A stretch of DNA of 64,000 nt from Candidatus Dadabacteria bacterium (GTDB taxonomy: Bacteria > Desulfobacterota_D > UBA1144 > Nemesobacterales > Nemesobacteraceae), in assembly GCA_951812945.1 (NCBI GenBank), contig CATOTB010000001.1:393976-457975 (forward strand), in the 5' to 3' direction. Positions 475 to 26,005 of the stretch are shown here, piece after piece. Below the pieces are notes generated by a model, which worked only from the letters and a program-made list of their open reading frames with translations, did no database searches and was not told the DNA's origin. Made by a program: the position numbers and the translations under genes. The stretch's first letter is position 1. Each line of letters opens with the position of its first letter.

Positions 475-3400
475 ATGGTGGAACATAAGCGGCTTGTCTG
501 TCGGGCGCAATGCCAGCCTGAATCCCTCTCGTCCTCGCATCGGGGTGAGAAAACGGCTGAGCCGACCCCGGACCGGACAAGTTCCCAGATCAAGGTTCTT
601 GGAACCTTATTTTTCCTCTTTTGTCTTAGGGGACTGCGTGCGGTATGCCCCTCATCCCTTTTCACCGTTAGGAAAAGAGTAAACCTGAGAAGCGGAGTCT
701 GCCTGCTGCTGTCGGCATACATGCTGTCGATGTTTCTCTCTCCAACCGCGCATGCCCAAACCCTTGAATTTGCCGCAGATAGCTATAAGGTGACGGATAC
801 CACGGAGAAAATTATTCGGGGCAGGCTTGAATATGATAATGGCCAGGGAGTATGCGATGATTATTTTACAGATGATGACGCAATGGTTGCATGCGCGGAG
901 TTAGGCCATGTACGCAGAGAGGGGAGAGCGCTGCTAGGATTGACTGAATCCGGTAACGACGACTTCCTGCTGGATAATTTAATTTGTGACGGAGATGAAG
1001 ACAGTCTTAGTGAGTGTAGTAAAGCCGGTCGCCCGGGTGATGGGGGAGGAGGAGATGGTGACCACAATTGCAGAGACAGTGAGCATACGGGTGTTGTCTG
1101 TTACACAGAAGTCGTCAAACCGAAAGCACCTGTGCTAAGCGGGGCTCCCGACCCGGAACATGGAGACACGGCAATACTCTCTTGGACTGCTCCAAAAATC
1201 GAATTCACGGGCCACAACATTAATTACATAGAATCCATAGTTGATAACTATGAACTCCAGGTGTCGGAGGATGGCAGTACGGGCTGGACAGATGTTTCTA
1301 CCGGTATTCGATCTATAAGAAGAGATTTTCGTCATAGCGGTCTTTCCTCCGGAACGTGGCATTACAGGATCAGAGCTGTTAACACTGTGGGCAATGGTCC
1401 GTATTCGAACGTGGCCGAAGTTACTCTTGGAGGGAATGGGAGGCCCGTATTTTCCGAAGGAACTCCTGCTACGCGTTCTGTACCAGAGAACACCGTTGCA
1501 GGAGAAAACATTGGTGGCCCGGTTGCGGCTACGGGTTCAGAGAGCTACTTGCTTGGTGGCGCGGATGAGAACTCGTTTGATATTGATGGAACTACGGGGC
1601 AGCTGAAGACAAAGGCGGCACTTGACTATGAGGACAAGAACTCTTATTCGGTTACGGTTACCGCCCAGCATAATGGGAGTGCGACATCAATAAATGTGAC
1701 AATTTCAGTAACCAACGTGGATGAACCTGGGACGGTGACTTTGTCTGCTTCGGAACCGCGGGTAACTATGGAGGTAACCGCAACTTTGGAAGACCCTGAT
1801 GGTTCCACGACAAACGTCACGTGGGAGTGGCATAGGTCAACTGACAAAAACAGCTGGACCTTGATCAGTGGCGAAACAACCGCTAGCTACACGCCGGATG
1901 TAGACGACGAGCTGCATTACCTGCGGGCCACGGCCTCATATACGGATCCAGAAGGTTCAGGAAAAAGTGCTGAGGGGATTTCAGAAAACGTGGTGCCGGA
2001 TGAGAACTGGCCGCCCGAGTTCTCCGGTGAAACTGCTACGCGTTCTGTGGCCGAGAACACCGATGCCGGAGAAAACATCGGAGATCCTTTTACGGCTACG
2101 GAACCGGAGAGAGATACGCTTACCTATTCGCTTGGAGGTACGGACGCGGCTTCGTTTACTGTTGAAACTATTGACAATTCCGATGATACCTATTCCGGGC
2201 AGATAAAAATCAAGGATTCGCTTAACTATGAGCACAAGAATTCTTACTCGGTTGATGTTATCGCTGAGGATTCTTTAGGTGCGGGCGACACTATCAAGGT
2301 GACCATCAACGTGACTGATGTGGATGAAGACGGAAAGGTAACCCTGTCCCCTGTGCAGCCTCAGGTAGATACGGCGTCGACCGCGACTTTGGAAGATCCA
2401 GATGTTCCCGTATCGAGTGTCACGTGGAAGTGGTATAAGTCATCTAGTCGGAACAACAGCTGGAGTCTCATCAGCGGTGCTACGAGTGCCAGCTACACGC
2501 CGGTTGCGGGCGACGTGAGTAATTACCTGCGGGCAACGGCGACCTACACAGATCGGCACGGTTCCGGTAAAACCGCACATGGAATTTCTGACCTCGTGGT
2601 GCGCGTGGCACCGGTGACAAACAACTCACCCGAATTTCTTTCTAATACACAAAACACCTTTTCCGTGACCGAGAATACCCCTGCTGGAGAAGATGTTGGA
2701 GAGGTCACAGCTACGGATTCGGATACCGGAGATGTGCTTACTTATTCGCTTGGCGGTACGGACGGGACTTCGTTTCAACTTGAAGACCAGACTTCCGGGC
2801 AGATAGAGACCTATGCGGCACTTGACTATGAAATCAAAAATTCTTACTCGGTCGTAGTTACGGCCAAGGATCCGTCCAATGCAAGCGACACTATTACGGT
2901 GACTATTAACGTAATCGATGTGGATGAAGACGGAAAAGTAACTCTGTCTCCTTCCCAGCCGCGTGTGCGCAATGCGGTGAGAGCTAGGCTTACAGAACCC
3001 GACGGCGGTCTCTCTAATCTCAACTGAGAGTGGCATAGATCACTCGACAAGAGCGACGGCAGCTGGAGCCCGATCAGTGGAGAAACAAGCGATCGTTACA
3101 CGCCTGTTGCGGACGATGTTGGTTATTACCTGCAGGCGACTGCGTCTTATGACGACAAGCACGGTACCGGAAAGGAAGTACAGGCGGTTTCCGCCAATCC
3201 GGTGCGTGTGGTGGGATCTACGACGACGAACAGTAGGGATACAAGGTCCACACCGACGATGGTGGTTCCGAGCGCGCCCCGGGATTTAACGGCGACGGGC
3301 GGCGACGGCGAGGTAACGCTTAGCTGGAGGGTACCGGATGACGGCGGTAGCCCCATCAAGTACTACGAATACAAGGTTGATAACGGTGCTTGGACTTCGA

Positions 3401-5655
3401 CCGGAGGAAAATCCACTACTTACACTGTTACGGGGCTTACCAATGGGCAGACTTACAGATTCGAGGTACGTGCGGTAAACAGCATCGGTCCCGGCGCCGA
3501 ATCTGCCCCGGTAAGCGCTACGCCCGCCGCAGTGCCGGGTGCGCCCCGGAATCTGAGGGGAGTGCGTGGCAATGCCGAGGTAACGCTTAACTGGGATGTG
3601 CCGGATAATGGGGGAGGTGCAATTGAGCGCTACGAATATAAGGTTGATAACGGTGCGTGGGACTCAACAGGAGGAAAATCCACCACTTATACAGTCACTG
3701 GGCTTGCCAGTGGGCAGACTTACGAATTCAGGGTACGTGCGGTAAACAGCATCGGTCCCGGCGCCGAATCTCAGCCCGAAAGCATTGCGCCCGCCACAGT
3801 GCCGGGCGCACCCCGGAATCTTACCCTAACATCGGGTGATCAATATATGATGCTCATATGGGAGCGACCAGCGGATAACGGCGGTCTTCCGATCACCGGC
3901 TACGAGTACAGCCAGAAGGAAGAGGATGGGTCCTTTGGCAGTTGGATCCCCATAGATGAAAGCGGTCCTAGGGAAACGAACGAAACCAGCTATACGGTCA
4001 CGGGCCTTAAAAACGGTACCATTTACTCCTTCCGGGTGCGCGCGGTGAACGAAGTGGGTCCGGGAGATCCTTCAGCCGAAGCCACGGCCGAGGTGAATAC
4101 TCCCTCTTTCCGGCGCGCAAGGCGCGCGAGCCTGAACATCCTTCCGACATTCGGGCGGACCATGCTCAGGAACTCTGTTGACGCACTTACCTGGCGTCTT
4201 GACAGCGCGCTTTCAGGATCATACACGCGGACGGGAATGTTCAGGCTTATGGATCAGCACGCGGGCCTTCACGAAGTCATCGGAGATGACATATGGGATG
4301 ATCCGGACCAGTGGGAAGAGCTAAGCCTCGAAGAACTGCTTTACGGGTCTTCCTTCATAATAGAAGCCGGTGTGATGCTCAAAAAACCGAAGGAGAACCC
4401 TAAAGAAGCTCCGAAGGAACACAAAAGATATACAGAAGAATACTCGGGGGAACAGATAAGAGAGTATCCGGAGGAAGATTCCGCGGATAAGAACATGTGG
4501 ATTGAAGAGGATGAAAAACCCATGATCGTCGAGAGAAGAGGCGATATCGGATTCTGGGGCAAGGCGGACTACAATAATCTTTCGGTCTCAAGCGACGAAT
4601 GGTTTGCGTGGGACGGGCGGATTGTGAGCGGTTACATGGGAGTTGACAGGTGGCTTAACGAGAAGGTGCTTACGGGATTTTCCGTGTCCTTGACGAAGGG
4701 GAATTTCGATTATACGGACACGACGCCTGGAGAAGGGGGAAGGGGTGATTACTACGTCAAGATGCTGAGCGTGTCACCGTATGTCTCCTGGTTCCTGTCC
4801 GAGGATGCTTACCTTTGGGGCTCGGTTGGCTACGGCCGCGGGCAGGTAGACATAGACGACGAAGAGGTGCAGAGCGTCGCCACAAGCGACCTGAGCTACA
4901 AGTCGGTGGCAGCTGGAGGAAGAGGCAGGGTGTTTGACGTGGGAGACACGACTTTTGCTCTTAAGAGCGAAGCGTTTAAGGTGTGGATGGACGTGGAAGG
5001 CGACGACTACCTGATCGACGAGATGTCGATAGGGGTGCACCAGTTGCGCCTCAGCATGGAGGGAAGCTACGAGTACCGCTTCGCGTCCGGAACCTGGTTC
5101 AATCCTCTGGTCGAGGTAGCGCTTCGCCACGATGGCGGAGACGGGGAGACGGGCACAGGGGTCGAAATAGGAGGAGGATTCCTCTATGAGAACCCGAACC
5201 TGGGTCTCAGCATCTCGGGCAGGGGGCGCTGGCTTGCGGCGCACAGCTCGGATGAGTTCAGCCAGTGGGGAGTGGGAGGAGCCGTGATCTTCGATACGGG
5301 AGGGGACAAGCGGGGGGCGCTGTTCAGCGTGGCGCCTGAATGGGGAGACACCTCAAGCGGCGTTGACGGTCTCTGGGAGCGAGGAGTGGAAGGACTGTCC
5401 TCAGAGGATGACGGGCGCAATGACATGCATCTTGACGCTGAGTTCGGATACGGACTCGCGGCTCTCGGTGGAGACGGGCTCTTTACGCCTTACAGCGGTC
5501 TCAGGCTCGGTGGGGACGGGCGGCGGCACTACAGGCTCGGCAGCCGTCTTGATCTCGGGCGCTCGGCAAGCTTTAATCTTGAGACCCAGCGCAGGCAGAG
5601 CGACGCCGCGAAACCCGAGCATGGAATCATGCTTAGAGGAAAGCTTAATTTCTGA
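475..5655 (+). CDS. Giant autotransporter-like surface adhesin: signal peptide, SRCR domain, FN3, 3x (cadherin + Ig-like) units, 3x FN3, acidic linker, C-terminal outer-membrane beta-barrel. The frame is interrupted by one in-frame TGA at 3025-3027, so it may be a pseudogene, a sequencing error or a readthrough site.
   Basis: Six-frame ORFs 475..3027 and 3202..5655 are in the same frame, and 3028..3201 has no stops. The signal-like segment is VCLLLSAYMLSMFLSPTAHA-QT; the SRCR motifs are VCDD..DA.V.C..LG...SLSEC...HNC...GVVCY. The cadherin repeats show LDYE.KNSYSV.V.A...INVT..NVDE. The C-terminus ends ...MLRGKLNF. The true start (ATG 475 vs ATG 721) is uncertain. Confidence 0.7.
808..1107 (+). 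other. SRCR (scavenger receptor cysteine-rich) domain within the adhesin
   Basis: IIRGRLEYDNGQGVCDDYFTDDDAMVACAELGHV...LLDNLICDGDEDSLSECSKAG...GDHNCRDSEHTGVVCYT aligns block-for-block with the group A SRCR consensus (RLVGG..G.VCDD.W...DA.VVCRQLGCG...LD.V.C.G.E.SL..C...HNC.H.EDAGV.C). Confidence 0.7.
1438..3200 (+). repeat. Three tandem ~580-bp coding units, each a cadherin-like domain plus a beta-sandwich 'VTWEWH...YLRATA.YTD..G.GK' domain
   Basis: Protein-level repeats: ...PVFSEGTPATRSVPENT.AGENIG...LDYE.KNSYSV...NVT..NVDE.G.VTLS...LEDPD......W.W..S.....W..ISG.T.ASYTP...D...YLRATA.YTD..G.GK. Confidence 0.75.
3265..3805 (+). repeat. Near-identical tandem duplication of a ~270-bp FN3-encoding unit
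   Basis: VPSAPRDLTATGGDGEVTLSWRVPDDGGSPIKYYEYKVDNGAWTSTGGKSTTYTVTGLTNGQTYRFEVRAVNSIGPGAES is repeated almost verbatim, with long identical DNA stretches. The out-of-frame ORFs 3390..3590 and 3657..3839 are mirror artefacts of it. Confidence 0.8.
4534..5655 (+). other. C-terminal autotransporter-type translocator (outer-membrane beta-barrel) region of the adhesin
   Basis: Alternating amphipathic beta-strand pattern, Gly/Asp-rich loops and a terminal aromatic (…RGKLNF-stop), preceded by an acidic linker (EEYSGEQIREYPEEDSADKNMWIEEDEKP). Confidence 0.55.
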
Positions 5656-5746
5656 TCGGTTTTTCGGACGGGGTTTGGAATGTCGGCCGGTTCCCTTTTT
5701 CGCCAGATGAATTCTCAGGCAGGAATCTGCGTTTCTACGAAAACTG

Positions 5747-7594
5747 CTACAGCCAGTCGTCTTCAAGCGTATCGGCAGGGCGTTGGTGGAAGGCCCCGGT
5801 GTCCAGGCTGTTTTTAAACCCGCGGAACTTAAGCAGACCCGAGATCGCGGGTTTTATCTGGCTTCTTTCAACCACCAGGTGAACCCCGCCGTGTTCCTCG
5901 TAGAACTCAGAGGACATTATTTTCGGGTCGACCCCGCGGCCACCGCTTGTGAGCTTCACGACGCGGTCCCCGGCGAAAGCTATGGTCGCTTTTTTCTCCG
6001 CTATCAGGAAGTCTCCCTGCACCGCGTAACTTGCAAGTGCCCCTCCTGTTGTCGGGTGGCCGAGTATGGAGATGTTCGGAAGCCCATGTTCCTTGAGTCT
6101 CATGATTGCGGCTATGGTTTTCGCCATCTGATAGAGCGCCACGGTTCCTTCCTGCATCCGTGCGCCTCCGCTTACCGTTACGGTTAACAGGGGAAGCCTG
6201 TGCTCTATGGCGTAACTTATCACTATGTTCATTTTCTCGCCGAAAACGGAACTCATTGATCCGCCCATGAACCGGAAGTCACAGACCGCCACCGCGACGG
6301 GTATGCCGAACATGGTTCCATAGCCTGTTACCAGGGAATCTTTCGAGTCGGTTTTCCCGGCGAGCTTCTGTCTGGAAGACGAGTAGTTGAAGAATTTGTA
6401 AACAGGGTCTACGTCCTCAAGCGAAAGGCCGGATTCTATTTCGTGGAAAGAGGCCTCGTCCAGGAGAAAGTCCAGATAGTCATCGGAACTCAGCGCTTCG
6501 GGACGGTTGCAGTAAGGACACGAGGAGTGGTTCGCGTGGAGCTCTTTTTTCGTGAGCTGCGTTTTGCAGCCGGGGCGTATGATTTTCCCCTGGCCATCCT
6601 TTTCGTCGTTGCAGAAATGAGGTTCCGATCCGTAGATGGCTATCTGCATTTCGGAGATATCCGGATTCTCTTTTTTTCCGCTGAAGTAGTAGGGAAGCCA
6701 GGCCTTTATTTTCTTCGAGATTCCCTCGTACATCCTGCGCTGCTTTTTTATTCGTCCGCAGCGCTCGATTTTCCTTCGCAGTTCCTCTCGCAGGTGCCTT
6801 ACGTCGTAGCGGTCAAGCTCTTTCGATGCGGCGGTGAGGGATGCCTGCAGGTTCTTGAGGGTCGAGGGGATGTAGTTGCTTTTTCCAAGAGGGGCCTCTT
6901 TTACCACTTCGTCTATTATTCCGTATTTCTTCATGTGATTTGCCGTGGGCTGCAGCACCTCGAGGGCTTCTGCGACCTTGTCCGCGCTTCTGAAAAGAAT
7001 GGCGGAGCACCCCTCGGCTGTTATCACGGAATATTCGGCACGCGAGAGCATCAGCCTTTTGTGTCCGAGCTGTATCGCGATCGCACCCCCGCTTCCCCCG
7101 AGTCCGAGCACGGTGGTTATCGTTTTCGTTCTTATGGAAATCATCTTTGACTGGCAGTAGGAAATAAGCCAGGACTGGAGTTTTTCGGCCGAGTACTCGT
7201 AGGGGTCTCCGCCGACGGTATCGATGAACGTGAAGAGCTTGAGACGATTCTGCTCGGCGTATTCCATCATGCACAGAGAAAGCCCGTAACCGTCGGCCTT
7301 CACCATTCCGTAGTTAAGCTTCGTCCTTTCCTTTTCGCTCGAAGGGGTCTGCTGGGCTATTACGGCCACTTCTTCTCCGGTGCCCTTGAACACAGCGGTG
7401 CCTACTATGACGGCGGGGTCGTTAACAAACTCAATCTTCTTGCCCGAGGGGGCGTGGAGAAAGTTCCTGAACCCGTAGAGCTTGTTCCATGGAGTAAAGT
7501 CGGTAAAGAGGGTTCCGATCAGGTGCTTTGACTTTATCCTGTCAAAGCTCTTTGCTTCCTCGTGGGCCTGAAGTGTTTTTGCCGTTGATGCCAT
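5747..7594 (-). CDS. Acetyl-CoA carboxylase carboxyltransferase, fused alpha (AccA, N-terminal) and beta (AccD, C-terminal) subunits
   Basis: The N-terminal half matches AccA (FIDTVGGDPYEYSAEK...GLGGSGGAIAIQLGHKRLMLSRAEYSVITAEGCSAILF). The C-terminal half has the AccD zinc ribbon (CNDEK..C...CPYCN) and FMGGSMSSVFGEK...SGGARMQEG. Confidence 0.85.
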   Translation of the reverse strand: MASTAKTLQAHEEAKSFDRIKSKHLIGTLFTDFTPWNKLYGFRNFLHAPSGKKIEFVNDPAVIVGTAVFKGTGEEVAVIAQQTPSSEKERTKLNYGMVKADGYGLSLCMMEYAEQNRLKLFTFIDTVGGDPYEYSAEKLQSWLISYCQSKMISIRTKTITTVLGLGGSGGAIAIQLGHKRLMLSRAEYSVITAEGCSAILFRSADKVAEALEVLQPTANHMKKYGIIDEVVKEAPLGKSNYIPSTLKNLQASLTAASKELDRYDVRHLREELRRKIERCGRIKKQRRMYEGISKKIKAWLPYYFSGKKENPDISEMQIAIYGSEPHFCNDEKDGQGKIIRPGCKTQLTKKELHANHSSCPYCNRPEALSSDDYLDFLLDEASFHEIESGLSLEDVDPVYKFFNYSSSRQKLAGKTDSKDSLVTGYGTMFGIPVAVAVCDFRFMGGSMSSVFGEKMNIVISYAIEHRLPLLTVTVSGGARMQEGTVALYQMAKTIAAIMRLKEHGLPNISILGHPTTGGALASYAVQGDFLIAEKKATIAFAGDRVVKLTSGGRGVDPKIMSSEFYEEHGGVHLVVERSQIKPAISGLLKFRGFKNSLDTGAFHQRPADTLEDDWL

Positions 7595-7778
7595 GGTATG
7601 TTCTGCGGTAACCGCTTAGCGAATCCGCTAAATATAATTATATAATCAAATCCGTTTGTGCGAAAAGGAATCCATTTTCCCGGCCTACCAGCGTTTAATA
7701 AAACCTCCGTGCGAAGATTCGCCACGGGGCTTGGCAAAGGTTTTGTTGGGAAAAGTCTGAATGTTGTGGATTCTTTTT

Positions 7779-8102
7779 CTATGCGGTGAAAGACTGTCCG
7801 CAGCCGCAGGAACCGGTCGCGTTCGGATTTTCGATCGCAAAGCCCGTTCCGTTAAGACCGTCCTTGAAGTCCAGAACCGCTCCGTCGAGATAGGTATAGC
7901 TGATCTCGTCAATGGCGACTTTAATACCTCCGGATTCAACCATGTTGTCTCCTTCGTCGGTTTCGTCGTCAAATCCCATCTCGTAAGAAAACCCGGAACA
8001 GCCGCCGGGTATTATCCTCACTCGAAGAAACGCGTCCTCAATGTCATCTTCGGCAAGAAGCCTTTTTATTTCATCTACGGCTTTGGGAGTTACGGAAAAC
8101 AT
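7779..8102 (-). CDS. erpA: Iron-sulfur cluster A-type carrier / insertion protein (ErpA/IscA/HesB family)
   Basis: 107 aa with GGCSGFSYEMGF and the C-terminal SCGCGQSF cysteine motif. Confidence 0.8.
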   Translation of the reverse strand: MFSVTPKAVDEIKRLLAEDDIEDAFLRVRIIPGGCSGFSYEMGFDDETDEGDNMVESGGIKVAIDEISYTYLDGAVLDFKDGLNGTGFAIENPNATGSCGCGQSFTA

Positions 8103-22104: not shown

Positions 22105-22575
22105 CTAGCTTTGGTTTTTCGTCTCCCGATACAGAGTTTCTGCACGAAGTTTTAATGCCACACCCACATCGCTAAAGCCGCGGCGAATATAACCGCCGAA
22201 GAACAGCGAGACAATTGATGAAAATACACCGCTCAATAGGTCGACATTATGGTAGCTGCAGCTGGTGTCACTTATAGGTTCCAGATGCTGCTCTCGCACC
22301 ACAAACAAAAACCAGGAAGCTCCGAATTTTCTGCTCCAAGCAATAAGGCGTGGTTTTTCAAATGCACATACGGTTTCGGTTATTCTGAATTTCCCCGGTC
22401 CCATTCTTACCAATAGATGGGCGGGCGATCCAATTTTGAAATCGGTTCTGGCTTGAGATGTGAATGGATTCCACTCACCATATTTTTCAACGTCAGTCAG
22501 GACCTCCCAAACGAAGTCAATGGGTGCGTTGATCTGAATACGGTCGGTACTTATACTAAAACTGGTCATTCCCAT
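22105..22575 (-). CDS. SRPBCC superfamily protein (polyketide cyclase/dehydrase-like, START/Bet v1 fold)
   Basis: INAPIDFVWEVLTDVEKYGEWNPF; size about 155 aa. Confidence 0.55.
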   Translation of the reverse strand: MGMTSFSISTDRIQINAPIDFVWEVLTDVEKYGEWNPFTSQARTDFKIGSPAHLLVRMGPGKFRITETVCAFEKPRLIAWSRKFGASWFLFVVREQHLEPISDTSCSYHNVDLLSGVFSSIVSLFFGGYIRRGFSDVGVALKLRAETLYRETKNQS

Positions 22576-23566
22576 CTCTGCTGGCCTTAACTAGAGTTTT
22601 AACCCATGCATCTGAGTTGTCCCATAGAAGTTTCGACACATCCTGGTCTTTTGTCTCGCCGGATGATTCCGCTATTTCGCAGCGCACATAATAATTTCCA
22701 CCTTGAAGTGGGTATTTACTAGCGCACATCACGGAAGTTTGTGCGCCCGATACTGGGCTTAGCAGGACAAAAGATGCGAGTGCGGAACAGATTCGGTTTA
22801 GAAGATACCCGATTTTTCCTTCGAACTCTTCAATCTGCGTAAGATTAGTCATAACAGACCCGGGGTGTACCGCTGCCGATTGGAGGTTGTACTTTCTGGC
22901 AAACCGTCTCTGGATCTCGAAAGTAAAGTGAATTAGCGCTAATTTTGACAGTCCATAGGCGTCCCAGGAGTGGTATTCTCCGCCATCGTTAAACATGCTC
23001 TTGTTTTTCGCTCTGTCGTGCAGGTGGGAAGTCACGTTTATGACTCGCGCATCTCCGCTTTCTAAACCATTTTGCTTAAGAATTGGAAGCAATAAACTCG
23101 TCAGGTGAAAAGTTCCAAGGAAATTGGTTCGCCAATGAATTTCGAAACCATCTTTTGTCATGGGCGGCTTTTTTCTTGGATTAAGAATGTTCTTATGAAT
23201 TCCTGCGTTATTGACAAGCACATGTAGTTGGTCGTTGTAATTTTTTCGGTACCACGTTGTGAAATTATTAACGCTATCAACATCATACAGATCTAACGTA
23301 TAGGCTGTAATCTTCTTTTCGTCAGCGCCAATGATTCGCAAATCTCTCTTTAAAGAACTTTCCATCAATTCAATATCGTGAGTACTGGTGACAACAACTG
23401 TAGCCCCCCAACTTGCAAGTATCTTAGCCGTTTCGTAACCAATTGAATGAGGAGAAGCGCCTGTCACAATGATGTTCCGACTCGACATATCAACTTCTTC
23501 CGCCATCGGCTTGCTCGTAAATAAACACAAGATATGAGCTGCGGATTTTGAGAACGTGTTAGGCAT
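22556..23566 (-). CDS. SDR family NAD(P)-dependent oxidoreductase (retinol dehydrogenase/WWOX-like)
   Basis: IIVTGASPHSIGYETAK (TGxxxGxG), NNAG, and YGLSKLA (YxxxK). An alternative start is at ATG 23506. Confidence 0.75.
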   Translation of the reverse strand: MPNTFSKSAAHILCLFTSKPMAEEVDMSSRNIIVTGASPHSIGYETAKILASWGATVVVTSTHDIELMESSLKRDLRIIGADEKKITAYTLDLYDVDSVNNFTTWYRKNYNDQLHVLVNNAGIHKNILNPRKKPPMTKDGFEIHWRTNFLGTFHLTSLLLPILKQNGLESGDARVINVTSHLHDRAKNKSMFNDGGEYHSWDAYGLSKLALIHFTFEIQRRFARKYNLQSAAVHPGSVMTNLTQIEEFEGKIGYLLNRICSALASFVLLSPVSGAQTSVMCASKYPLQGGNYYVRCEIAESSGETKDQDVSKLLWDNSDAWVKTLVKASRDGNDQF

Positions 23567-23615
23567 GCTGGAGCAACGTTATGTATAAGGTGTGGTCTCG
23601 CCTACAACTAATCTT

Positions 23616-24893
23616 TATATAAGGGAATTATGTATTTAAGTTGACACTTCCATACACTGTTCTTGGCCGAGCAAGGGCAACCCCTTGTTTCTCTCCAATC
23701 CTTCCGGCCATGCGGTGACATTCCCGCCCGCAATCGAAGCTAAGCCTCGATGAAGGATATTTATCGCTGCGTTTACATCCCTGTCCGCCTCATAACCACA
23801 GTCGCATTTATGCGTCCTTACCGACAGGTCTTTCTTCACTGTTGCTCCGCAACTTGAGCATTCCTGCGAGGTTCCCTTGGGATTCACTCCCACCATCTTA
23901 ACGCCAGCACTCTCGGCCTTCTCGTTAAGCAGGGTTATGAACTTGCCCCAAGCCTGCTCAGATATGCTCCTTGCCAAATGCTTGTTGTGAAGCATGTTCT
24001 TTGTCCTGAGTTTCTCTACCGCTATAAAGTCGTACATCCTCGCTATCTCCGAGGTCAGCCTGTGGAGATAGTCTCTTTCCTTGTCCGTAAGCCTCTGCCA
24101 TTCCTTTGCAAGCAAAGATACTGCTTTGCCTCTGTTATTGCTTCCCTTCACCTTGCGGGATACGGAGCGTTGCAGGCGTATCAGCTTCTTTCTGTCTATC
24201 TCCCGCTTCTCCACAGTCTCCCCGTTACTCAAGGTAAGACGCTTCGATACCCCCATGTCTATCCCGACGGGGTTGCTCGCTGGTTTTGCCTCGGGAGTCG
24301 GCAATTCATACGATAACGCCACTTCCGTCCGCACAGGCTTTCTCGTAATTCTGATCGCCTTGAGCATGGAGCTGGACGGCAGTTCCCGGGAAGGCTTCAC
24401 TTCAATGCGGGGAAGCCCCTTTACTTTGAGAACTAACTTGTTTCCCTCACGCTTGAGCATTCGCCAGCACTGATCGTTTATCTCTATGGTTCGCCAGCGT
24501 CTCCGGTTCTTGAAACGGGGGAATCCGGCTTTCTCCTTTGCCTTCACTCGGCGGAAAAACGACTTGTACGCCTTGTCAAGTCTCGATAGCACGCCTCGGA
24601 ACACGATACTGGATACAGCCTCAAACTCCGGCAACTCCGCTCTTACCTGCACAAGTTCCTTGTACTGGTCATAAAGACTGCGACCCTCGCCTGTCTTTCT
24701 GTAGCAGTCAATGCGGGATTCCAGTCCTGCATTGTACAACTCGGCGCTCATCCCAAATATCTGAGACAGCGTCTCATGCCCCGACTTGGATAACTTCACT
24801 CTGCACTTGTAAGTCCTTATCATCACTATATTATACCCGATTTATCAGCCGTTTAAATTGCCTGTCAACTTAAATACATAAGTCCCTTATATA
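23616..24893 (-). mobile_element. tnpB-only IS200/IS605-related element bounded by 31-bp near-perfect terminal inverted repeats
   Basis: Left 23616-23646 is tatataagggaattatgtatttaagttgaca. The reverse complement of right 24863-24893 is tatataagggacttatgtatttaagttgaca (1 mismatch). The repeats enclose only the tnpB ORF. Confidence 0.7.
23636..24826 (-). CDS. tnpB: TnpB (IS605 OrfB family RNA-guided endonuclease), apparently intact
   Basis: N-terminal MIRTYKCRVKL...LYNAG; RuvC-I VGIDMGV; RuvC-II IAVEKL; zinc finger CSSCG...CDCG; RuvC-III ADRDVNAAINI. Confidence 0.9.
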   Translation of the reverse strand: MMIRTYKCRVKLSKSGHETLSQIFGMSAELYNAGLESRIDCYRKTGEGRSLYDQYKELVQVRAELPEFEAVSSIVFRGVLSRLDKAYKSFFRRVKAKEKAGFPRFKNRRRWRTIEINDQCWRMLKREGNKLVLKVKGLPRIEVKPSRELPSSSMLKAIRITRKPVRTEVALSYELPTPEAKPASNPVGIDMGVSKRLTLSNGETVEKREIDRKKLIRLQRSVSRKVKGSNNRGKAVSLLAKEWQRLTDKERDYLHRLTSEIARMYDFIAVEKLRTKNMLHNKHLARSISEQAWGKFITLLNEKAESAGVKMVGVNPKGTSQECSSCGATVKKDLSVRTHKCDCGYEADRDVNAAINILHRGLASIAGGNVTAWPEGLERNKGLPLLGQEQCMEVST

Positions 24894-24947
24894 ACACAAA
24901 TGCGCCTCTGGTACTTGCTCACCCCGCTGCTACGCCAGCTATAGGGC

Positions 24948-25949
24948 TTACTCTCGGGAATTAGCGACTAAGGGCCCACTTGCTTCCCACAACTTGGTTC
25001 CGTTTTCCTTATCCAACGCCGTAGGAGACACGGACTTTCGCTGCATTAAATGCAAGTAGATGCCTGTGTCGGTACCAGCTTCTTCCGCACAGCATAAGTA
25101 AATTACCGGTCCAATAGCTTCTTCTGGAGATTGAAAAAAATATCTCAGCAATGGGTTAACTATAGGTTTCAAAATCGACGGTGTTTCTCGTGAAAGGTTC
25201 GTAGCAACGCCTCCAGGACACATTGAGTGAACTGCAACTTCAGTTTTGCTGCCTGTGTTCAAGCGGCGCGAGAGTTCAGTTGCGAACATACACAGAATAA
25301 GTTTGCTGATACCGTAATACTTGAAGCCATCCTTGAGTCCATAGTCGGTAAATTCCCCGAAATGGTCGAAATCGATAGTATGAGAGGACCGATGAGCCTC
25401 AGATGAAACGAAGATAATTCGCGGTGTTTTTCCAGCTTGGCTGGATGGAGAAATCACGCCGTCTTTCAACCACCGGTCAACCATGATGCGATTCGACAGG
25501 AAATGAACCGCGAACATTGTTTCGTATCCTTGCGGTGTTTTAATTGCCTTTTTGGGCGCCAAACCTGCGTTGAAAACCGCAATATCAATTTTGATGTTGC
25601 GGTTACTCAGACCATCGCAAAGACGGTGTACCGACCGAAGATCTGAGAGGTCTACTTCCATCATTTCTATATTCTCGGAACCGGACAGTCTTTTTATTTC
25701 GTCGCATGTTTTCGTATGACCAGGCCGACAAGCTAAAATCATTTTTGAGCCACGCCTTGCAAGTTCGATGGCAGCGGCTTTACCCAACCCGCTGTTCGCT
25801 CCGGTTATTAGACAAGTTTTGCCATCGATACGTACGTGCTTTGGAACAGGATTCACTTCCGATACCTTGGGTTGCGCCAAATCTCGAGTTGCGATGATTA
25901 TAGCGTCTATGAAAGAACCATCTCCCATTTGATTTGTTTTTCGTTTCAT
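24948..25949 (-). CDS. SDR family NAD(P)-dependent oxidoreductase
   Basis: CLITGANSGLGKAAA (TGxxxGxG), NAG, YGISKLI (YxxxK). Confidence 0.75.
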   Translation of the reverse strand: MKRKTNQMGDGSFIDAIIIATRDLAQPKVSEVNPVPKHVRIDGKTCLITGANSGLGKAAAIELARRGSKMILACRPGHTKTCDEIKRLSGSENIEMMEVDLSDLRSVHRLCDGLSNRNIKIDIAVFNAGLAPKKAIKTPQGYETMFAVHFLSNRIMVDRWLKDGVISPSSQAGKTPRIIFVSSEAHRSSHTIDFDHFGEFTDYGLKDGFKYYGISKLILCMFATELSRRLNTGSKTEVAVHSMCPGGVATNLSRETPSILKPIVNPLLRYFFQSPEEAIGPVIYLCCAEEAGTDTGIYLHLMQRKSVSPTALDKENGTKLWEASGPLVANSRE

Positions 25950-26005
25950 GGCGAGTTCCTCTGCATAGTTTTTCGGTTCTTTATGGTTGTTTGAATTTGC
26001 ATGGA

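Follow-up and report, generated by a model that had tools for sequence, protein, structure and literature searches.

A tnpB-only element with terminal inverted repeats and an 8-bp target-site duplication in Candidatus Dadabacteria

The window analysed here is a 64,000-nt stretch of a Candidatus Dadabacteria genome (assembly GCA_951812945.1, contig CATOTB010000001.1, positions 393,976 to 457,975 of the forward strand), and all coordinates given without a locus name are positions within it. Between two genes of the short-chain dehydrogenase/reductase (SDR) family, the window carries a mobile element whose only gene is tnpB. This element is probably a 1,264-bp non-autonomous DNA transposon with ends of the IS1595 family (ISNwi1 group) and with a complete OMEGA module as its sole cargo. 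Its exact ends are fixed by 24-nt terminal inverted repeats (TIRs), by an 8-bp target-site duplication (TSD) and by related loci in which the same site is empty. TnpBs associated with DDE transposases are already known; what is new here is a tnpB-only element with ISNwi1-type TIRs and TSD, a TIR that lies within a predicted ωRNA scaffold, and a candidate target-adjacent motif (TAM) of a single base.

The element, its ends and its insertion sites

The most conspicuous feature of the element is an inverted repeat of 32 nt, located at 23615-23646 and 24863-24894, whose arms are complementary at 31 of 32 positions. The two arms are each other's sole matches across the 64-kb window when up to three mismatches are allowed, and dinucleotide-preserving shuffles gave no such pair (0/100). 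A sequence-only reading of the window had described this repeat as 31 bp long with 30/31 matches; the repeat is present, but it runs one base further. It is also composite, each arm consisting of an inner 24-nt TIR and an outer 8-bp TSD. The outer 8 nt on the 3′ side of tnpB (23615-23622) and those on its 5′ side (24887-24894) both read TTATATAA, which by chance is its own reverse complement. Because this octamer is self-complementary, the apparent inverted repeat stretches to 32 nt. The element proper occupies 23623-24886. The single-gene tnpB unit recognised in the earlier reading therefore has an extent of 1,264 bp and not 1,278 bp, since the outer 8 nt, which had been taken as part of the element, are the TSD, and these 8 nt are the key pointer to DDE-type transposition.

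Both TIRs are 24 nt long, begin with GGGAATTAT and match each other at 23 of 24 positions. The 5′ (left-end) TIR, at 24863-24886 on the minus strand, reads GGGACTTATGTATTTAAGTTGACA on the tnpB strand, while the 3′ (right-end) TIR, at 23623-23646 on the minus strand, reads TGTCAACTTAAATACATAATTCCC. The latter covers the end of tnpB, its last codons and stop included, as the coordinates of the open reading frame (ORF) bear out, and similarity between copies of the element stops there.

The insertion site is empty in two related strains (loci L037 and L038), which were reached via orthologues of the flanking SDR gene that are 92-93% identical to it. In both, the two SDR genes are directly adjacent, with a single octamer and neither the element nor tnpB between them, and L038 keeps the wider gene order of the window. 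When the element and one octamer are removed, the window is colinear with both loci in the alignment. L037 reads ...TTTGCG TTATATAA GGATTTAG..., with the octamer present once, and the BLAST breakpoints agree. Since the empty site aligns colinearly with a single octamer, the mobile unit is 23623-24886 and TTATATAA is a true target-site duplication. The mapping of empty sites, which the sequence-only reading had proposed as a check, thus fixes the exact ends, and the window copy is polymorphic, being occupied here and empty in L037 and L038. Terminal inverted repeats together with a duplication of fixed length and variable sequence are the signature of a DDE transposase that makes staggered cuts in its target.

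The same design recurs at other sites. A scan of a collection of one genome per species (596 Gb) for an 18-nt core of the repeat, and exact-protein look-ups that added further copies, gave a total of 13 independent insertions in Candidatus Dadabacteria genomes. Look-ups with the window's own TnpB, read from either start codon, and with the flanking SDR protein had no match, these exact sequences being absent from the index. The core matches lie in chromosomes of Candidatus Dadabacteria metagenome-assembled genomes (MAGs), some of them labelled Thermodesulfobacteriota, and every one of these ends a tnpB element, a truncated copy (L002) or a miniature derivative (L004). The remaining 18-mer matches are scattered singles in unrelated phyla, at about the number estimated to arise by chance in 596 Gb. 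When the window region is compared with these loci by BLAST, similarity between copies starts and stops at the repeat.

Nine of the 13 insertions are flanked by a perfect 8-bp TSD, and the octamers differ between sites (TTATATAA, TATATTTA, TAAACTAT, AAAGTTAA, TATGTTTA, ATATCGCT, ATAATTAA and AAACTTAT are those listed). In one more insertion the flanking 8-mers agree at 7/8 positions. The flanking 8-mers of the other three (L003, L005 and L030) have no match, as is expected of old copies or of copies rearranged by recombination. The TSD octamers are 90% A+T; the G+C content of the window is 52%. Copies that are 89-95% identical sit at different sites with intact TSDs. The paralogues P0100 (11 contigs) and P0054 (7 contigs), on the other hand, each represent one orthologous insertion that recurs across samples, not multiple copies.

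In the junction alignment, the inner 24 nt common to all copies read GGGA(A/C/T)TTATGTATTTAAGTTGAC(A). The sequence-only reading had regarded different termini in other copies as evidence against its proposal; the outer 8 nt do differ from copy to copy, but the inner 24-nt TIR is common to them. At least four TIR variants are present among the paralogues, all of which retain the tip GG(G/A)A.TTAT, and the two arms match within each variant. The TIRs are kept far better than neutral sites. The 3′ TIR in particular is identical in nine copies, even though the synonymous divergence (dS) of the gene reaches about 0.9, while the 5′ TIR drifts.

The base directly 5′ of the upstream TSD is a G in all 13 independent insertions (P ~5e-8). 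In the window copy it is located at 24895 on the minus strand (C on the plus strand). A T precedes this G in 7/12 cases, and the mirror-image C after the downstream TSD is absent as a conserved signal. Because the G is already seen in empty sites, it is part of the pre-existing target sequence, and it is possibly a TAM.

The window TnpB has 3,166 database relatives at E<1e-10. The best 120 of these, from Dadabacteria-type MAGs, are 76-95% identical to it; a single chromosome (1.6-2.1 Mb) holds several paralogues. The nearest plasmid-borne or viral TnpBs are less than 40% identical. Those from viral contigs, which served as a control, are generic (27-34% identical), and 8/9 of their loci have no TIR. 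A metagenome scan with the TIR gave two loci only.

Several other features of this family were seen in the sampled loci. A miniature of about 102 bp (L004, 3972-4073), located on a Thermodesulfobacteriota/Dadabacteria chromosome, has degenerate TIRs (GGAGCTTATGTATTTAAGTTGACA ... TGTCTAGTTAGATACATAATTTCC) and no tnpB. Its A/T-rich flanks no longer match, and it resembles a miniature inverted-repeat transposable element. A lone 3′-terminal fragment of about 265 bp (L002, 5601-5865) consists of the ωRNA-like region and the 3′ TIR, the remaining tnpB being gone, and is 97.6% identical to the matching part of the L009 copy. Divergence between the window copy (23636-24826) and the L015 copy (2452-3716) is mosaic: dS is 0.27 for the first 300 codons but rises to 0.91 for the remaining 95, indicating that subfamilies of the element have recombined.

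Two independent insertions sit 12-20 bp upstream of tRNA genes (tRNA-Gln CTG at 3714-3787 of L003 and tRNA-Val GAC at 6237-6311 of L042), and in both the 3′ end of the element, the putative ωRNA side, faces the tRNA. In the fixed P0100 insertion (7180-7205 of L022; also in L020-L029), the start codon called for the CDC48-like AAA ATPase gene that lies downstream is within the 3′ TIR, 2 nt past the tnpB stop. The element may give this host gene its start or its expression signals, or the start may be miscalled. L003 also has a second, unrelated tnpB-like gene (6682-7932, 25% identical) about 3 kb from the element on the same Dadabacteria chromosome; these small genomes hold several TnpB lineages. 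A distant tnpB-only unit (29% identical) on an IMG/VR contig (L046, 5904-7126) has a 22-nt A/T-rich inverted repeat, matching at 20/22 positions, whose 3′ arm starts 6 nt past the tnpB stop. This unit is present as a single copy and has no obvious TSD.

The TnpB protein and the predicted ωRNA scaffold

The single ORF between the arms (23636-24826, minus strand) encodes an RNA-guided endonuclease of 396 aa when read from a GTG start, or of 395 aa from the ATG at 24823. Three Pfam domains are recognised in it, OrfB_IS605 (PF01385), Cas12f1-like_TNB (PF07282) and HTH_OrfB_IS605 (PF12323). The generic NCBIfam model for RNA-guided endonuclease TnpB (guided_TnpB) scores 247 bits against a cutoff of 100, while the more specific models stay under their cutoffs (IS200/IS605-TnpB, 212 against 425; IS607_TnpB, 103 against 350). 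The closest solved structure is that of ISDra2 TnpB (8H1J/8EXA, E ~6e-43). In the alignment to 8H1J, the RuvC residues D/E/D (in GIDMG, AVEKL and DRDVNAA) and the CxxC...CxC zinc finger are kept, in agreement with what the sequence-only reading had said of this gene. Judged by these residues, the enzyme is catalytically intact. The ORFs of all nine paralogues that were compared are intact (391-398 aa), and pairwise dN/dS ratios of 0.13-0.28 point to purifying selection. A σ70-like promoter (TTTAAA, 16 nt, TATAAT; 10/12 in a consensus scan) is predicted between the 5′ TIR and the tnpB start, at 24830-24857 on the minus strand, and its GGGTATAAT box is kept in diverged paralogues.

The final 130-150 nt of the element have a conserved multi-stem structure, as predicted by RNAalifold from alignments of 11 and of 14 copies. 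In the window copy this putative ωRNA-like scaffold extends over 23623-23756 on the minus strand and overlaps the 3′ end of tnpB. Its 33 predicted pairs are paired in 99.1% of the alignment cells, a value that falls to 33-45% when the partners are slid by 1-3 columns. Nine pairs are altered on both sides, and 0/500 shuffles match these values, the structure having been derived from the same alignment. In the last helix, a GAA..GUGUA strand just downstream of a conserved CGGCCAAGAAC box pairs with UACAU..UUC inside the 3′ TIR. In L030 and L039, which have a different TIR, this helix has the compensating change AUAUA/UAUAU. The covariation supports a conserved ωRNA-like structure at the level of prediction. 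According to this model the 3′ TIR is at once the end of the transposon, the last codons of tnpB and part of the scaffold, and its constancy, as against the drift of the 5′ TIR, is in line with such a triple role.

By analogy with TnpB ωRNAs and with the guide RNAs (reRNAs) of the eukaryotic Fanzor nucleases, the putative guide template would be the TSD together with about 12 nt of flank (23603-23622, minus strand). Fanzor reRNAs extend through the TIR and the TSD into the flank, and their scaffolds include both (PMC10711439). An alternative role for the TIR, as an ωRNA guide with the element ends as its target, was considered and rejected: the sequences just inside the TIRs differ and have no common TAM, and the TIR pairs within the scaffold. 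An Rfam scan of 22500-26000 matched no family. A sub-threshold match to CRISPR-DR20 (23727-23756, minus strand; 22 bits, E 0.24) falls on the first hairpin of the scaffold and was set aside as probably due to chance.

Origin of the ends and alternative explanations

The ISNwi1 group of the IS1595 family reportedly includes "ISNwi1+" elements with passenger genes (Siguier et al. 2009). The group makes duplications of 8 bp and has ends of the type ggnnatTAT (ISfinder), features that were checked on real elements. For this purpose the DDE-domain sequences of ISNwi1, ISSpo8 and ISPepr2 were taken from the supplement of PMC8101967. The ISNwi1 query led to IS1595-family transposases on plasmids, and the transposases of two loci, L057 and L055, are typed closest to the ISNwi1 group. 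The L057 element (4648-7251; plasmid-borne, Roseomonas marmotae) has an IS1595-family transposase, passenger genes and a perfect 8-bp TSD, TATCTTTA. Its left TIR is GGGGATTATGTATTTGACAA. The terminal 15 nt of the window 3′ TIR, GGGAATTATGTATTT, match the corresponding GGGGATTATGTATTT of L057 at 14/15 positions (P ~9e-7 after 20 comparisons). The second ISNwi1-group element, in L055 (Pseudosulfitobacter), has the ends GGCGATTGTATA...TTGACAA and an A-rich duplication that agrees at 7/8. According to the literature, IS1595-family TSDs are 8 bp long and often A/T-rich, and the ends of these elements begin with GG (PMC8101967, PMC12561309). Because of the near-identical TIR of L057, the 8-bp A/T-rich TSDs and these published features of IS1595 ends, the ends of the TnpB element are classed, by their sequence, as ISNwi1-type. 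The element is only a non-autonomous derivative of IS1595 and not a full member, because it has no Zn_Tnp_IS1595/DDE_Tnp_IS1595 transposase. The passengers of the L057 element, which lie inside its TIRs, are, in this order, a hypothetical protein (about 270 aa) and a PIN/VapC-type protein, and L053 has the same set; both loci are on alphaproteobacterial plasmids.

As a non-autonomous transposon, the element would rely for its movement on an ISNwi1-type DDE transposase supplied in trans from elsewhere. Its tnpB would be driven by its own predicted promoter. Transcription of the ωRNA, whose scaffold overlaps the 3′ end of the gene, would continue through the 3′ TIR into the TSD and the flank, which would then serve as guide. 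The TnpB-ωRNA complex could cut unoccupied copies of the insertion site, with the G just 5′ of the TSD as the last base of the TAM, and would spare the element's own right junction, which is preceded by ...TTCCC. Repair of the cut by recombination with an occupied copy would then lead to retention or spread of the element, as has been shown for IS605-type TnpB. The insertions with a correctly oriented G would be those that TnpB can retain or spread.

Several observations weigh against this explanation. The search for the partner transposase covered a small part of each Dadabacteria genome, 587 kb in all with the window included. In these 587 kb, tblastn with eight IS1595-family DDE domains found no IS1595 transposase (best E 0.12), and a pattern scan for GGGANTTAT...ATAANTCCC pairs found tnpB elements only, with no other transposase between matching ends. 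With the Roseomonas ISNwi1-type transposase as query, a protein search gave only its close relatives and no partner. The solo-tnpB paralogues have at least four TIR variants whose arms co-vary within each lineage; therefore several co-diverging partner transposases, or some other homogenising mechanism, would be needed. The one-sided G, seen in 13/13 insertions, is not expected from a symmetric TIR transpososome. Lastly, a circular form has been reported for ISApl4 (PMC12561309), and if IS1595 moves by a copy-out-paste-in route, a role of TnpB in repair of the donor site would not apply. In the same DNA, an all-against-all BLAST of the 587 kb showed no other repeated element, and the 13 sampled neighbourhoods have no DDE gene inside the TIRs. 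Other transposase genes lie near two of the copies (L042, 1-4544; L039, 10136-11176), where ISAs1-like and IS5-like DDE_Tnp_1 genes, an HTH_29 protein and an IS110-type DEDD gene are found. The ends of these are unrelated to those of the element, and the DDE_Tnp_1 genes adjoining the L042 copy were rejected as its partner for this reason.

The same observations could be taken to mean that the element is autonomous and that TnpB itself, with or without the ωRNA, cleaves the ends, makes the staggered cut or picks the target, with no DDE partner at all. With the 3′ TIR inside its RNA, and with the two TIRs co-varying, the TnpB-ωRNA complex could act on the ends by recognition or cleavage, or could select the target through the TAM-like G, and the result would be a single-gene, RNA-assisted transposon with 8-bp duplications. 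TIR, one ORF, TIR and TSD is the layout of an autonomous insertion sequence, and RuvC nucleases of the TnpB/Cas12 type make staggered cuts. In tnpB-only lineages, changes in one TIR arm are matched in the other arm and in the ωRNA stem, and the orientation-specific G beside the upstream TSD appears as if an asymmetric, TAM-like reader had chosen the target. No partner transposase was found in the sampled neighbourhoods or the 587 kb, but this sample is a small part of each genome. However, near-identical ends on an element that encodes its own IS1595 transposase provide the ordinary explanation, the exact 8-bp TSD is a hallmark of that family, and a miniature derivative without tnpB exists (L004). 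Moreover, the IS605 and IS607 systems studied can transpose without TnpB, and catalysis of transposition by TnpB has not been observed in them (PMC13565253, PMC3119063). Autonomy, in its general or its RNA-assisted form, is very unlikely. A domesticated, immobile TnpB that serves the host, for example as an RNA-guided regulator, with the repeats as relics or regulatory palindromes, is very unlikely. Exapted TnpBs exist, and P0100 and P0054 are each fixed at one site and under purifying selection, but the polymorphic window copy, the 89-95% identical copies with intact TSDs at different sites, the intact catalytic residues and the preservation of the TIRs beyond that of neutral sites all speak against it. 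For a generic repetitive extragenic palindrome or a chance palindrome, unrelated to the mobility of tnpB, the probability is negligible. In its favour are the A/T-richness of the repeat and the simple palindrome formed by its outer 8 nt, but the window holds the two arms only, shuffling does not reproduce them, and occurrences in the genome collection, apart from chance 18-mers, sit at the ends of tnpB elements or their truncated and miniature derivatives. This also disposes of the generic palindrome that the sequence-only reading had named as a possible refutation.

Elements with tnpB only are common in the IS200/IS605 family (PMC3119063), and a derivative of it (IS1341-type or palindrome-associated), moved in trans as single-stranded DNA by a Y1 HUH TnpA and with an incidental palindrome, has also to be considered. 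In its favour, ISDra2-type TnpB is the most similar protein among solved structures and plasmid-borne genes. Elements of this family, including the tnpB-only IS1341 type and the palindrome-associated transposable elements (PATEs), have no TIRs, make no TSD and insert beside a fixed motif of 4-5 nt; PATEs and IS605 elements have subterminal hairpins (PMC13565253, PMC3119063). The window element has TIRs and a TSD with a single octamer in the empty site, and its TSDs vary from site to site, so that there is no fixed 4-5-nt target beside the left end. No direct-orientation repeat or direct-orientation subterminal hairpin is common to its two ends. A tblastn search with the TnpAs of IS200 and IS608 found no Y1 TnpA at E<1 in the window or in the 57 fetched loci, and Y1_Tnp does not appear in the Pfam lists of neighbouring genes. 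The protein also scores below the cutoff of the IS200/IS605-TnpB model. Transposition of the IS200/IS605 type is ruled out by the 24-nt TIRs, the variable 8-bp TSDs and the single-octamer empty site, and derivation from this family is barely credible. IS607 elements, which are moved by a serine-recombinase TnpA, have neither TIRs nor TSDs (PMC13565253, PMC3119063) and are ruled out by the presence of both; the Pfam neighbour lists contain no resolvase-type gene. A tyrosine integrase or other site-specific recombinase was rejected since the flanking repeats differ at every site. The sequence-only reading had judged the architecture atypical for IS200/IS605 and had seen no tnpA in the window, and both points hold. 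Among the origins that it offered, a palindrome-associated derivative is contradicted by the subterminal hairpins and the lack of a TSD in PATEs, while a distinct TnpB-carrying lineage, probably mobilised in trans, agrees with the present results.

Comparison with known systems

Prokaryotic OMEGA nucleases are understood almost wholly from elements of the IS200/IS605 and IS607 types, whose excision leaves no scar. Whether and how TnpB aids a TIR/TSD transposon of the DDE type is a question raised in a recent review (PMC13565253). The present lineage provides a clean natural test system for it, with many intact copies, exact ends, an empty site and a TIR in the predicted guide-RNA scaffold. The one-base, orientation-specific flank signal could be a TAM that tells empty from occupied sites. 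If the TAM is indeed minimal, the compact 396-aa nuclease may be of interest for genome editing. The lineage also adds the IS1595/Merlin-related superfamily to the transposons that carry TnpB. No report linking TnpB with IS1595-type ends, and no functional link between TnpB and IS1595, was found in the literature.

Relative to the IS200/IS605 family (IS1341 group and PATEs), the similarities are an ISDra2-like TnpB, an ωRNA-like structure over the 3′ end of the gene and a compact single-gene unit of about 1.3 kb. The differences are in the ends and in the target: dissimilar subterminal hairpins without duplication in that family, TIRs with an 8-bp TSD in the window element, which also has neither the fixed short left-end target nor the Y1 TnpA. 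With the ISNwi1 group it has in common the 8-bp A/T-rich TSD, TIRs of about 24 nt that start with GG..ATT.T (14/15 with L057) and the carriage of passenger genes (in L057 the hypothetical and PIN-domain proteins). Members of that group have a Zn_Tnp_IS1595/DDE_Tnp_IS1595 transposase, which is present neither in the window element nor in the sampled DNA. In the window element tnpB is the sole gene, and the 3′ TIR doubles as last codons and, by prediction, as part of the RNA scaffold.

Duplications of 2-3 bp or TA are made by IS630, ISL2 and IS1031. These are the families linked with TnpB in a 2026 review, in which the associations are described as rare and unexplained (PMC13565253). In the study of Altae-Tran et al. 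(2023), DDE-associated TnpBs are flanked by inverted terminal repeats, and solo TnpBs have the same ends (PMC10691335). The six branches described there, DDE-1 to DDE-6, and their solo derivatives resemble the window element in that a prokaryotic TnpB lies within an inverted-terminal-repeat transposon with the 3′ end of tnpB at the transposon end. That study used a distance of at most 250 bp between the two; in the window element the stop codon is inside the 3′ TIR. The transposon-type ends of the solo units also imply mobilisation in trans. Differences are that IS630, ISL2 and IS1031 are the families named, while the window element has IS1595/ISNwi1-type ends and an 8-bp TSD, and that among the sampled members of the window lineage none has a transposase in cis.

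Fanzor elements have reportedly been found in DNA transposons with TIRs and TSDs (Bao and Jurka 2013). The window lineage is a rare bacterial parallel to these eukaryotic nucleases that ride DNA transposons. It differs from them in being bacterial, in having a canonical short TnpB (396 aa) and in its TSD, which is 8 bp long and variable in sequence, so that it cannot itself be a fixed TAM. Like the window element, Fanzor elements of eukaryotes and viruses (Yoon et al. 2023, PMC10711439) are non-autonomous TIR/TSD transposons with no gene other than that of a TnpB-family nuclease, and a TIR is part of the guide-RNA scaffold, a role that in the window element is predicted.

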